In this document: positions 557 to 4,859 of the stretch, one piece after another
Position numbering within the stretch: position 1 is the first letter of the stretch
How the letters are laid out: each line of letters begins with the position of its first letter
Origin: Escherichia phage YZ1
Direction: 5' to 3' (one strand)
Sequence record: NC_047927.1
DNA length: 38,823 nucleotides
Position numbers and translations under genes: made by a program
The notes under the pieces: generated by a model
Databases searched by the model: none
What the model was told of the DNA's origin: nothing
The model's input: the letters and a program-made list of their open reading frames with translations, nothing else

Positions 557-593
557 TTGACAAGATGTACCGACTTAAAGTAGTATGTACCAC
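557..593 (+). promoter_or_regulatory. Host sigma70-type early promoter (T7 A3-like): -35 TTGACA, 18-nt spacer, -10 TAGTAT
   Basis: TTGACA at 557-562 and TAGTAT at 581-586; the flanking sequence (GTAGACAGCCTGATAAGTC upstream, GTACCACAT downstream, GCTCTTTAACAATCTGG further on) resembles the T7 early promoter region as I remember it. Confidence 0.6.
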
Positions 594-716
594 ATCAACA
601 CGAAACAACGGTGACGACCAACACTGAAATGGTCTACCTGAAGTCCTCTGACTGAAGGGAATGCTCTTTAACAATCTGGATAAACTCTTAATGTGCGCCG
701 ATAGCGACTAACTACA

Positions 717-746
717 GGGTCTTTGAGTCTACATCTGAAGGCCCTG
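717..746 (+). promoter_or_regulatory. Stem-loop in the early leader (AGGGTC ... GGCCCT), possible RNase III site analogous to T7 R0.3
   Basis: 6-bp stem with one G-U pair immediately upstream of the first early gene; layout resembles the T7 R0.3 region. Confidence 0.3.
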
Positions 747-777
747 ACTGATAGTCACTAACTAAAGGATAAACAAG

Positions 778-1302
778 ATGAAACTGATAGGCAAAGGCAC
801 GTTCACTAAGTGCTACCTGAAGGACTGCGGGAAGCGTGTAATTCTGGTCTCTTCAGACCCAATCAAGGAGTGTATGGCGTGGGGATGGTTCCCTGAGTCT
901 CCACTGTTCCCTGAAGTCAAGATGATTGAGGTGGGCACGTATGAGATGGACTACATGCCACCAACACGAGGACTCAAGGCGCATTTAGATGACGACCAGT
1001 GGCAACTCTATCAGGTGCTGCGAGATTGCTTCTCACGGTCTCCGGTATTCTCTCGACCTGCTGACCTGTATCACAAGTGGTACGAGATATTCCAAGCTGC
1101 ACACGACAGGTCTGAGACCGAGACTGTGCGGGAAGGTCTGATGGATGTACTGATGGCGCTGGACGCTTGCGCTAACTTCGGGTCTGACATTCAGTTTGAG
1201 ATAAGCCCACGAAATGTACGGGCTGTGAACGGCAAGCTGATACTAGTGGATTGTTTCTTCCTTGTGTCCAAGCTGCAAGAGGTGAGGGCGTCAAGATGGT
1301 AA
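778..1302 (+). CDS. gp0.7-like protein kinase-domain protein (174 aa, minimal, lacks the T7 C-terminal host shut-off domain)
   Basis: Glycine-rich loop LIGKGTFTKCY near the N-terminus and a C-terminal segment EISPRNVRAVNGKLILVDCFF that aligns with the catalytic/activation segment of T7 gp0.7 ([23 protein letters not shown], from memory). First gene after the early promoter. Confidence 0.5.
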   Translation: MKLIGKGTFTKCYLKDCGKRVILVSSDPIKECMAWGWFPESPLFPEVKMIEVGTYEMDYMPPTRGLKAHLDDDQWQLYQVLRDCFSRSPVFSRPADLYHKWYEIFQAAHDRSETETVREGLMDVLMALDACANFGSDIQFEISPRNVRAVNGKLILVDCFFLVSKLQEVRASRW

Positions 1303-1445
1303 CTTATGGTCTCTGCCAGCACCACGTCACCAACGCCCGGCTTATGGTCAAGACCGGGCAGTTAAACCACGATGCGACTATGCGCCACCTGAAAGCGGTC
1401 TACGAGGGCCGCAAGCGCATACACGACAGTTTGCACGCTAAGTGA
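1296..1445 (+). CDS. Hypothetical 49-aa protein, start overlapping the kinase stop (alternatively a frameshifted continuation of the kinase gene)
   Basis: ATG at 1296 overlaps the stop of the 778..1302 ORF; GGTGAGGG upstream; open frame to 1445. Confidence 0.25.
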   Translation: MVTYGLCQHHVTNARLMVKTGQLNHDATMRHLKAVYEGRKRIHDSLHAK

Positions 1446-2177: not shown

Positions 2178-4859
2178 ATGAGCGTCATCTCTATTGACAA
2201 ACACGACTTCTCTGATGTGTCGAACGCCATTGAGCCGTTTAACCTGCTGGCTGACCACTACGGGCAAGACCTTGCAGTCAAACAGCTTCAGCTTGAGCAC
2301 GAGGCATACACTGAAGGCGAGCGACGTTTCATCAAGAACCTTGAGCGCCAGACTGAGCGCGGGGAACTGGCAGACAATCAGGTCGCCAAGCCTTTGATGC
2401 AGACTCTGGTGCCTAAGATTGCGCAAGCAGTCAAGGAGTGGCACGAAGGCCAAGACGGGAAGCTGTCAACCTCTCGTCCTAGCGTAGCGTTCATCATGTT
2501 GAGCACTGAAGAGAAGGCCGTCAAGGACCGCTCTATGCGCATCTCCTGTGAGTCCGCTGCGGTTATCATACTCAAGGTCATACTCTCCAAGCTGGTCAAG
2601 CCTGAAGGGATACCGATTACACCGATGGCCTCCGCGATAGGTCGCACACTTGAGGACGAAATCCGCTTCGGTCGCATCCGTGACAAAGAGAAGGAGCACT
2701 TCAAGAAGGCGATAGCTGAGAACCTGAACAAGCGAGCTGGGGCATCCTACAAGAAAGCCTACATGCAAGCGGTCGAGGCGTCCATGCTGGAGCAAGGCCA
2801 ACTGGAAGATGCATGGGGGACTTGGAGTCCTACAGAGGCTGTCCACGTTGGCATCAAGATGCTCGAGATTGTCATCCAGTCAACACAACTGGTCGAGCTT
2901 AAGCGGTACGGTGCTGGTAATGCAGCGGCTGACGTAGAGATGGTCCACCTGTCAGACTTCTGGGTCAAGAAGATGACACAACGAGGATTCAGCCTTGCGG
3001 GTATCGCTCCAGTCTACCAGCCTTGCGTCGTTCCACCTAAGCCGTGGACTGGTGTCGTAGGTGGTGGGTACTGGGCCAAAGGTCGCAGACCGTTACCAGT
3101 GATTCGCTTAGGGTCTAAGTCTGCGGTAGCACGTTATGAAGACGTATACATGCCTGAAGTCTATGACGCTGTGAATATCATCCAGAATACACCATGGAAA
3201 GTGAACAAGAAGGTATTGGACGTGGTGAACATGGTCGAGAAGCTGAACAACACGCCTATTGACGACATCCCTCAGATGGAACCGCTGAAGCCTGAGGACT
3301 ATGCTGGTGAGACCGAGGAGGAACTCAAGGCATGGAAGAAGACTGCTGCTGGTATCTATCGCCGCGAGAAGGCCAGACAGTCACGCAGATTATCACTGAG
3401 CTTTATCGTTAACCAAGCAAACAAGTTCTCTCAGTTCAAGGCCATCTGGTTCCCGTACAACATGGATTGGCGAGGTCGTGTCTACGCTGTCCCGATGTTC
3501 AACCCTCAGGGTAACGACATGCAGAAGGGTCTCCTGACTCTGGCAGTCGGCAAGCCTATTGGTGCTGACGGTTTCAAATGGCTGAAGGTCCACGGTGCAA
3601 ACTGTGCGGGTGTCGATAAAGTCACCTTCGAGGAGCGCATCAAGTGGGTGGAAGACAACCACGAAAACATCATGGCTGCTGCTAAGGCACCGATGGATAG
3701 TATTGAGTGGTGGGGCAAGTTAGACTCTCCGTTCTGTTTCCTCGCGTTCTGCTTCGAGTATGCTGGCGTAATGCACCACGGCCTGTCTTACTCCTGCTCG
3801 CTGCCGATAGCGTTCGATGGGTCCTGCTCTGGTATTCAGCACTTCAGTGCGATGCTTCGTGACCACATCGGTGGACATGCAGTAAACCTGACGCCATCCG
3901 GTAAGGTACAAGACATCTACCGCATTGTGTCTGACCGCATTGAGGAGGAGCTTAAAGTCCTGCTGATTAATGGTACTGACAACGAGATGGTCACTCACGA
4001 GGATAAGAAAACTGGTGAGATTACCGAACGTATCAAGCTGGGGACACGAGAGCTGGCCCGTCAGTGGCTGCAATTCGGTATGTCTCGCTCGGTCACTAAG
4101 CGCTCGGTCATGACTCTGGCCTACGGGTCGAAAGAGTATGGGTTCGCCGACCAAGTGTTCGAAGACACCGTGATGCCAGCGATTGACTCCGGTAAGGGAG
4201 CTATGTTCACTGAACCAAGCCAAGCGTCTCGCTTCATGGCTAAGATGATTTGGGAAGCTGTGAGTGTGACCGTAGTTGCTGCGGTTGACGCGATGAAGTG
4301 GCTTCAAGGTGCTGCCAAGCTGCTGGCTGCTGAAGTGAAGGACAAGAAGACTGGAGAAATCCTGAAGCCTTGCCTTCCGGTACACTGGGTCACACCTGAT
4401 GGTTTCCCGGTCTGGCAGGAATACCGCAAGAAGGATACCACTCGTCTGAACCTGATGTTCTTAGGGTCATTCAATCTTCAGCCTACCGTCAACAGAGGTA
4501 CGAAGAAAGAGCTGGACAAGCACAAGCAGGAGTCAGGCATTAGCCCGAACTTCGTCCACTCACAAGATGGTAGCCACCTCCGCAAGACTGTAGTCCACAC
4601 TCACCGCAAGTATGGCGTGATGTCGTTCGCAGTGATTCACGATAGCTTCGGGACCATCCCGGCTGACGCTGAGTATCTGTTCCGTGGCGTCCGTGAGACG
4701 ATGGTCGAGACCTACCGAGACAACGATGTGCTGCTTGACTTCTACGAGCAGTTTGAATACCAGCTTCACGAGAGCCAGCGCGATAAGTTGCCAGAGCTTC
4801 CGAAGAAAGGTAAACTGAATATCGAAGACATCTTGTCTTCAGATTTTGCATTCGCTTAA
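2178..4859 (+). CDS. Single-subunit DNA-directed RNA polymerase (T7 gene 1 homolog, 893 aa)
   Basis: Full-length colinear similarity to T7 RNAP: N-terminal DFSD...IEPFNLLADHYG, conserved blocks such as VHWVTPDGFPVWQEY and PNFVHSQDGSHLRKTVV, and the C-terminal FAFA. Confidence 0.97.
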   Translation: MSVISIDKHDFSDVSNAIEPFNLLADHYGQDLAVKQLQLEHEAYTEGERRFIKNLERQTERGELADNQVAKPLMQTLVPKIAQAVKEWHEGQDGKLSTSRPSVAFIMLSTEEKAVKDRSMRISCESAAVIILKVILSKLVKPEGIPITPMASAIGRTLEDEIRFGRIRDKEKEHFKKAIAENLNKRAGASYKKAYMQAVEASMLEQGQLEDAWGTWSPTEAVHVGIKMLEIVIQSTQLVELKRYGAGNAAADVEMVHLSDFWVKKMTQRGFSLAGIAPVYQPCVVPPKPWTGVVGGGYWAKGRRPLPVIRLGSKSAVARYEDVYMPEVYDAVNIIQNTPWKVNKKVLDVVNMVEKLNNTPIDDIPQMEPLKPEDYAGETEEELKAWKKTAAGIYRREKARQSRRLSLSFIVNQANKFSQFKAIWFPYNMDWRGRVYAVPMFNPQGNDMQKGLLTLAVGKPIGADGFKWLKVHGANCAGVDKVTFEERIKWVEDNHENIMAAAKAPMDSIEWWGKLDSPFCFLAFCFEYAGVMHHGLSYSCSLPIAFDGSCSGIQHFSAMLRDHIGGHAVNLTPSGKVQDIYRIVSDRIEEELKVLLINGTDNEMVTHEDKKTGEITERIKLGTRELARQWLQFGMSRSVTKRSVMTLAYGSKEYGFADQVFEDTVMPAIDSGKGAMFTEPSQASRFMAKMIWEAVSVTVVAAVDAMKWLQGAAKLLAAEVKDKKTGEILKPCLPVHWVTPDGFPVWQEYRKKDTTRLNLMFLGSFNLQPTVNRGTKKELDKHKQESGISPNFVHSQDGSHLRKTVVHTHRKYGVMSFAVIHDSFGTIPADAEYLFRGVRETMVETYRDNDVLLDFYEQFEYQLHESQRDKLPELPKKGKLNIEDILSSDFAFA

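Follow-up and report, generated by a model that had tools for sequence, protein, structure and literature searches.

The gp02 protein of Escherichia phage YZ1, a 174-aa product encoded near the left end of the genome (778–1302 including the stop codon), is a member of a large family of stand-alone phage proteins (PHROG 11084) with a predicted kinase-like fold, and its gene occupies the exchangeable slot that gene 0.3 (Ocr) fills in T7. YZ1 is a Kayfunavirus (T7-like, Studiervirinae), and its complete 38,823-bp genome (NC_047927.1) is the window that we analyzed. We favor, with reasonable though not high confidence, a reading in which gp02 is a stand-alone, active mini-kinase-like enzyme that serves host takeover or anti-defense from the 0.3 slot and in which the overlapping 49-aa open reading frame (ORF), gp03 (1296–1445), is a separate gene 0.4 homolog. 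Both genes and the sequence elements described with them are on the plus strand, and RefSeq lists their products as hypothetical proteins of the phage. A first-pass annotation had viewed the region as a T7 gp0.7 kinase lacking its ends, followed by an out-of-frame ORF, and had proposed a pseudokinase, a split or frameshifted kinase gene or two genuine small genes as possible explanations.

The 174-aa ORF and the motifs originally quoted for it are present as described: IGKGTFTKCY (residues 4–13) and FEISPRN (residues 140–146), followed by LILVDCFF (residues 154–161). A Shine-Dalgarno-like AAAGGA (764–769), read from the sequence, lies 8 nt upstream of the ATG at 778. The protein matched the uncharacterized PHROG 11084 over its entire length (E 1.7e-95; residues 1–174 on positions 2–170 of the 170-position profile); distant members of the family matched it too. 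Clustering at 90% identity grouped gp02 with 150 members, almost all of them 174 aa long, and gp03 with 338, in both cases from independent assemblies. Furthermore, a word-indexed search identified 139 gp02 homologs, nearly all of ~156–206 aa, and an exhaustive profile search of 1.84 billion representatives recovered 779 clusters (50% identity) with an E-value of at most 1e-3, of which 209 reached 1e-30 or below. Nearly all of these proteins measure 155–210 aa. Family lengths range from 104 to 297 aa (median 173), with 227 of the 263 collected sequences measuring 160–189 aa, and we recognized no fused domain in the longer members. gp02 is a complete gene and a member of a large stand-alone family. 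We found no experimental characterization of the PHROG 11084 family in the literature; homologs in Dickeya phages already carry the label 'serine/threonine kinase' in some GenBank records.

Members of PHROG 11084 are found in podo-, sipho- and myoviruses that infect Proteobacteria and Bacteroidota. They include Kayfunavirus, Aarhusvirus, Molineuxvirinae, Seuratvirus, Otagovirus and Baltivirus representatives, one Aeromonas phage and one Cellulophaga (Bacteroidota) phage. The gene is always located among small early or accessory genes, also at the Molineuxvirinae, Seuratvirus, Otagovirus and Baltivirus loci, and the loci compared outside the Autographiviridae share no conserved gene neighbor. 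The gene has spread horizontally among unrelated phages.

The ATG of gp03 (1296–1298) overlaps the TAA of gp02 (1300–1302) by 7 nt (ATGGTAA) in another frame. This overlap is the only feature that suggests a kinase gene that was split, truncated or frameshifted, or a sequencing indel near 1290–1300, with the 49-aa ORF as the displaced C-terminus. We consider this explanation already refuted and its residual probability negligible. The gp03 protein matched PHROG 5058 best (E 4e-28), with weaker matches to PHROGs 7202 and 25044; for T7 gp0.4, these three families rank in the opposite order. It is also 39% identical to T7 gp0.4 (BLASTP E 4e-4), with 16 invariant columns in a four-sequence alignment. 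Furthermore, the 0.4 homolog directly follows the 0.3 slot in T7, in the close relatives U8 and 101118UKE1 and in GenBank KX689784. Thus, gp03 is a homolog of T7 gene 0.4 and, because this gene follows Ocr in T7 and relatives, the 49-aa ORF is not a displaced kinase tail. Instead of a contiguous ORF, phage U8 has the same two-ORF layout with the same 7-nt overlap, and the gp02 family ends at the same point across its 779 clusters. The conservation of both ORFs (PHROG 11084 and PHROG 5058) in hundreds of independent assemblies excludes an indel artifact as well as chance ORFs and bears out the proposal of two genuine small genes.

Like T7 gene 0.4, gp03 belongs to the same length class, is positioned directly after the 0.3 slot and has a start codon that overlaps the upstream stop. 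It differs from its T7 counterpart in family (PHROG 5058 versus PHROG 7202) and in the extent of the overlap, which is 7 nt in YZ1 and 1 nt in T7, where the start falls on the last base of 0.3. T7 Gp0.4 is an FtsZ-binding inhibitor of cell division encoded next to gene 0.3 (PMC13423816). FtsZ binding and the division block have been established for T7 Gp0.4 only (PMC13423816; PMC4944311), and gp03 may act on FtsZ in a similar way. The overlap and a Shine-Dalgarno-like GAGGTGAGGG (1279–1288), read directly from the sequence within the 3' end of the 174-aa coding sequence, are consistent with gp03 being translationally coupled to gp02; it plays no part in the kinase.

We also identified an ORF-for-ORF exchange at the site of gp02. 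In a comparison with the Ocr-carrying Kayfunavirus 101118UKE1 (MZ234021), nucleotide homology extends over positions 1–784, so that it covers the first 7 nt of the ORF, and begins again at 1295, the base preceding the 0.4 ATG; the ORF body alone differs. In 101118UKE1, the slot encodes a genuine Ocr (match to PHROG 2568, E 8e-51), and Ocr precedes 0.4 in T7 and GenBank KX689784 too. Thus, gp02 occupies an exchangeable gene 0.3 slot and is swapped with Ocr in a close relative. Ocr homologs were identified in 573 phage records versus 80 for the 174-aa family. Like Ocr (T7 gp0.3), gp02 has the upstream leader and the downstream gene 0.4 of this slot and is the first protein made after DNA entry. 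The two proteins are otherwise unrelated in sequence, fold and charge. gp02 did not match PHROG 2568, and its isoelectric point (pI) is 5.9 (acidic residues, 24; basic residues, 22) versus 4.05 in Ocr (34 and 6, respectively). Ocr is a highly acidic DNA mimic, whereas gp02 is a near-neutral protein with a predicted kinase-like fold.

The kinase-like fold was predicted with AlphaFold2 from an alignment of 39 diverse members (predicted local distance difference test, pLDDT, 96.3; predicted template modeling score, pTM, 0.90). The model runs through β1-β2-β3, a short helix (residues 28–34), β4-β5, three long helices, strands near FEISPRN and LLDCFF and a terminal helix. This arrangement has the elements of the bilobal kinase fold, with an N-lobe sheet and αC followed by catalytic and Mg-binding loops. 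Foldseek matches to the PDB agreed with this fold but were weak: the best was APH(2'') (E 5e-4; query TM-score, TMq, ~0.4), and a corramycin phosphotransferase, choline kinase and SAICAR synthetase were also listed. In BFVD, the top match was a family member (E 1e-19), followed by U5PZN2, an uncharacterized 212-aa protein of the Acinetobacter phage Presley (TMq 0.69). The nearest annotated neighbors in this database were Autographiviridae kinases of the type of T7 gp0.7, hereafter T7K (A0A7L7SMK1, NahiliMali and RSB1; E ~1e-5, TMq 0.47–0.55), and they matched better than any solved kinase structure. The initial description of gp02 as kinase-like and reminiscent of gp0.7 is supported by these viral folds, and the motif pairing that it proposed is the register recovered by profile alignment.

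The residues that would form an Mg-ATP site are nearly fixed in the 264 family members that we used to count conservation. The glycine-rich loop (IGKGTFTKCY; 787–816) aligns to LGNGHFSAAY of T7K and retains G5 in 251 members and G7 in 261. Gly7 corresponds in the alignment to T7K Gly76, and the T7K G76F mutant is catalytically dead (PMC13645617). The catalytic-loop equivalent (FEISPRN; 1195–1215) aligns to FDMHSGN of T7K, with E141 in 263 members and N146 in 261; F140 (259), S143 (252) and P144 (258) are near-fixed as well. LILVDCFF (1237–1260) aligns to ITDP(V) of T7K and has D158 in 262 members and F160 in 257. Based on these positions, Asn146 is the predicted equivalent of the Mg-binding Asn and Asp158, 12 residues later, that of the Asp of the DFG motif. 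The spacing in T7K is similar, with 5 and 13 residues between the corresponding positions versus 5 (E141–N146) and 12 (N146–D158) in gp02. The glycine loop (G5/G7), the catalytic-loop Asn and the DFG-type Asp are each conserved in at least 95% of the members.

Two positions of the predicted active site are not canonical in kinases. Glu141 replaces the catalytic Asp, and the β3 Lys is not conserved: position 24 is Lys in 89 of the 264 members and Val in YZ1, and position 20 is variable too. The PIKE motif (residues 28–31; 859–870) at the start of the αC-like helix has K30 in 259 members (Arg in three more) and E31 in 243. WNK kinases provide the analogy for a relocated lysine. By this analogy, Lys30 is a candidate ATP-contacting lysine and Glu31 an αC-Glu-like residue, and the K30-E31 pair may substitute for the β3 Lys/αC Glu pair. 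The loop between this helix and β4 (GWFPESPLFP, residues 36–45; 883–912) is also strongly conserved and has no function assigned.

The replacement of the catalytic Asp and the absence of the β3 Lys could also mean that gp02 is an inactive pseudokinase, which would bind nucleotides or proteins as a scaffold and thereby sequester or block a host factor in the manner of Ocr, the stoichiometric binder that otherwise holds this slot. The pI of gp02, however, sets it apart from acidic DNA mimics. Furthermore, the Glu, Asn146, Asp158, glycine loop and Lys30 are fixed in the pattern typical of active sites, whereas pseudokinases usually lose such residues erratically. Because Glu141 is fixed family-wide inside an Mg-ATP site that is intact in other respects, a functional enzyme that uses an unusual base is the better explanation. 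The combination of a fixed Glu141 with Gly7, Lys30, Asn146 and Asp158 favors activity over the decay of a former kinase and makes the pseudokinase proposed in the first-pass annotation unlikely; a scaffold acting by binding is, in our judgment, improbable.

The resemblance of gp02 to T7K is one of fold and motif order. T7K (PF27024, a family that includes JSS1_004) is likewise an early gene of T7-like phages transcribed by the host RNA polymerase and has a minimal core of ~150–170 residues that ends after the DFG-equivalent Asp. The order of the glycine loop, the catalytic-loop Asn and the Mg-binding Asp is identical in the two proteins, and their spacing is nearly so. An hhalign comparison of gp02 with the kinase-domain profile of T7K was colinear over 134–144 columns and paired the two glycine loops, FEISPRN with FDMHSGN and LVDC with ITDP. 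Large alignments gave a score of 30.6 (P 5.7e-4, probability 30%, 134 columns) and small ones a probability of 11% (P 3e-3), versus a score of 11 (P 0.63) in both reversed controls. A structure model of T7K (pLDDT 66.5) has the same order of elements, and supports this order and nothing more. Thus, the predicted relationship with the T7 0.7 family stood as a weak colinear alignment to T7K; the profile searches returned no kinase family of Pfam or NCBIfam and no T7K PHROG.

These similarities could indicate that gp02 is the gp0.7 ortholog of YZ1, in a minimal form that does the same job as the T7 kinase. The colinear motifs and the T7K-type folds in BFVD are in its favor, as is the lack of any other gp0.7 homolog within the 38,823-bp window (tblastn, best E 4.1). 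Yet the direct comparison of gp02 with gp0.7 was not significant (BLASTP E 1.7), and a profile search (E ≤ 1) gave no match of gp02 to the T7K PHROGs 2828, 15752 and 18305. The T7K invariants are K93 (VIK), D195 and N200 (FD-H-GN) and D213-P214-V215 (DPV). The VIK Lys, the FD-H-GN Asp and DPV are missing in gp02, which has E141 and D-C/V-F instead; the glycine loop, the Asn and the last Asp alone are shared. gp02 also lacks the ~70-residue N-terminal helical region and, ending 16 residues past Asp158 in a family with a median length of 173 aa, the basic C-terminal DNA-binding shut-off domain. Furthermore, gp02 lies in the 0.3 slot upstream of 0.4, whereas gene 0.7 is the last class I gene before gene 1 and would be the single kinase of its genome, and PHROG 11084 extends far beyond the Autographiviridae, into siphoviruses and myoviruses. 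The decisive evidence comes from Dickeya phage Mysterion, which carries both proteins. Its gp02 (55% identical to YZ1 gp02) is in the early slot and its gp05, a 352-aa two-domain T7K homolog (E 8e-46), is just upstream of the polymerase. Because both coexist in Mysterion, the PHROG 11084 protein is distinct from gp0.7. Orthology is thus highly improbable, and the YZ1 gene cannot be described as a gp0.7 that lost its ends. In our reading, gp02 and T7K share a fold and probably a distant common origin, not membership in the T7K family. PHROG 3809, an uncharacterized phage family, gave weak matches with a T7K-like kinase (E 1.4e-4) and with a member of PHROG 11084 (E 0.04); this family and U5PZN2 of Presley may be evolutionary intermediates among phage mini-kinases.

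Other phage proteins and records were examined in relation to the T7K family. We rejected the equivalence of gp02 and JSS1_004, which is a true two-domain homolog of gp0.7. The early region of GenBank KX689784.2 ('Escherichia phage JSS1') contains Ocr, the 0.4 homolog and small ORFs and no gp0.7-like kinase, and the correspondence between this record and the published JSS1, with JSS1_004 as its gp0.7 homolog, may be doubtful. In Shigella phage SFP21A, also a Kayfunavirus, the T7K-type kinase (PHROG 15752) measures 236 aa and has no long shut-off domain. Some Kayfunaviruses carry such a short T7K-type kinase and, therefore, the genus is polymorphic in the kinases of its early region. The protein P0302, encoded on a metagenomic contig, is a 297-aa PHROG 11084 member with a FEIQPRN variant. 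Its gene and that of a T7-like RNA polymerase, two genes downstream, form a layout that recalls gp0.7. We discarded it as a gp0.7-like two-domain protein: the unrelated C-terminal extension of 138 aa matched nothing in Pfam and is not rich in basic residues, unlike the shut-off domain.

From these features and from the known phage kinases, we infer that gp02 is catalytically active, which role Lys30 plays, what type of substrate is used and that the function lies in anti-defense or takeover. T7K and JSS1_004 act as anti-defense factors (PMC13645617, PMC12345140). By analogy with these two proteins and with minimal effector kinases, gp02 is most likely an early host-takeover or anti-defense phosphotransferase. 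The gene is the first to enter the cell, where the host RNA polymerase transcribes it. The product would be a 20-kDa enzyme with an N-lobe (β1-3, a short αC-like helix and β4-5), three helices and the catalytic and Mg-binding loops, lacking an activation segment and a substrate-binding C-lobe. Its active site would include the G5/G7 loop; Asn146 and Asp158 would bind Mg-ATP, Lys30 would take the place of the absent β3 Lys and Glu141 would act as the catalytic base. The targets of phosphorylation by gp02 would most likely be one or several components of the host, probably proteins, and the effect would be to disarm a defense or take over the cell. The minimal effector kinases OspG and NleH1 differ from gp02 (14–16% identity) in that both the canonical Lys and the catalytic Asp are retained and in that they are made by bacterial pathogens of eukaryotic hosts. 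HopBF1 is also among the minimal bacterial effector kinases, and mini-kinases of the OspG type depend on a host partner to become active.

Several observations weigh against an active kinase with an anti-defense role. Searches of gp02 against Pfam, NCBIfam and PDB-sequence profiles gave no kinase match; the Pfam result is uninformative for T7K-type proteins, as T7K itself matches no Pfam kinase model and PF27024 was outside the searched set. The hhalign probability of the T7K alignment was low (11–30%), and the active site departs from canonical kinases at the two positions described above. Activity of the family is suggested by its conserved residues and the anti-defense role by genomic position. 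PHROG 11084 is also found in phages of Bacteroidota and Pseudomonas, hosts without a known common defense target. Finally, depletion of Ser/Thr/Tyr, reported as the signature of phages with a hyperpromiscuous kinase, was not seen in the YZ1 early proteins (0.148 versus 0.159, a small sample with low power). Because the early proteins of this small sample are not depleted, a targeted protein kinase is likelier than a hyperpromiscuous one, if gp02 is a protein kinase.

Small-molecule or non-phosphoryl transfer activity is a serious rival. gp02 could be a small-molecule kinase or another nucleotide-transferring enzyme built on a kinase scaffold, similar to aminoglycoside and choline kinases or to the AMPylating and glutamylating 'atypical kinases', with a metabolite, a signaling nucleotide or a nucleic-acid end as its target. 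The best Foldseek matches in the PDB are to APH(2''), with the corramycin phosphotransferase, choline kinase and SAICAR synthetase listed too. The invariant Glu and absent β3 Lys suggest non-canonical chemistry, the very different phage hosts fit a universal small-molecule target and the early proteins show no Ser/Thr/Tyr depletion. We regard this rival as possible, if clearly a minority view, and prefer a mini-kinase-like enzyme acting on host proteins. A bolder extension of the preferred reading is that PHROG 11084 constitutes a class of counter-defense enzymes, Glu-based and lysine-relocated mini-kinases that functionally replace Ocr and, like it, are made before any other protein in the cell. 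Phosphorylation by these enzymes would neutralize restriction, BREX-type or other DNA-sensing defenses, or a conserved host factor that they need, independently of gp0.7 and in addition to it. We offer this idea as speculation that is more likely wrong than right.

The genomic setting of gp02 is that of an early gene. The window starts at the left genome end and the gene for the single-subunit RNA polymerase is at 2178–4859. Because the mini-kinase-like gene lies upstream of the phage polymerase near the left end, it belongs to the class I early region transcribed by the host RNA polymerase. The best candidate for an early promoter is a σ70-like TTGACA-18-TAGTAT (557–586, plus strand) with 10 of 12 matches and a position analogous to T7 A1–A3. 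The total of σ70-like sites in the region was not above that of shuffled sequences, and this candidate is identified by its position and match quality. The sole upstream ORF (339–560) precedes this promoter and, thus, gp02 was rightly called the first early gene of YZ1. That ORF, of 73 aa and probably the gp01 of RefSeq, has an odd composition (27% Ser/Thr/Tyr) and is probably not a real gene.

Between the promoter and gp02 is a conserved, hairpin-forming leader element of ~54 nt (TAACTACAGG...GGCCCTGACTGATAGTCACTAAC; 709–762, plus strand) that is predicted to fold (z -1.95) and is present once per early cassette in relatives. In U8 and 101118UKE1, an extra 81-aa early gene (PHROG 10124, function unassigned) that is missing in YZ1 separates the 0.3 slot from the promoter region (1256–1501 in U8, locus L001; 1262–1507 in 101118UKE1, locus L002) and is flanked by a duplicated leader. 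In these phages, the genes for the 81-aa protein, the 174-aa protein and Ocr are all preceded by the same leader (1187–1240 and 1503–1556 in L001, and the equivalent positions in L002). The element resembles the intergenic RNase III sites of T7. Furthermore, the upstream homology breakpoint of the cassette exchange falls at the leader, which makes it a plausible recombination joint.

Other features of the left end lie outside the gp02-gp03 cassette. Downstream, three more small early proteins of 34 aa, 65 aa (PHROG 2385) and 87 aa (PHROG 7066), all without assigned functions, are encoded at 1513–2080. A T7-type phage-promoter-like sequence (ttaactatcactataggact, ~2088–2108) is located directly upstream of the RNA polymerase gene, followed by two 21-nt direct repeats (2117–2160). 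Upstream of the early promoter, short direct repeats near the left end (215–292 and 100–162) comprise three copies of ACCTACAGTCTAAC and five of the ACGATAGGT type.

These results correct the annotation of the region: gp02 is not a damaged gp0.7, and the neighboring small ORF is gene 0.4. The ORF-precise alternation of Ocr and gp02 also provides a natural cassette contrast at the 0.3 slot. PHROG 11084 is an uncharacterized and very common phage family within a known kind, the phage-encoded minimal kinases, and its active site departs from two kinase rules, with a Glu for the catalytic Asp and no β3 Lys. Phage kinases such as T7K and JSS1_004 have recently been recognized as broad anti-defense weapons (PMC13645617, PMC12345140). 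gp02 points to a second kinase-like phage family, one with a much smaller protein and a far wider spread (779 clusters, no Pfam model).

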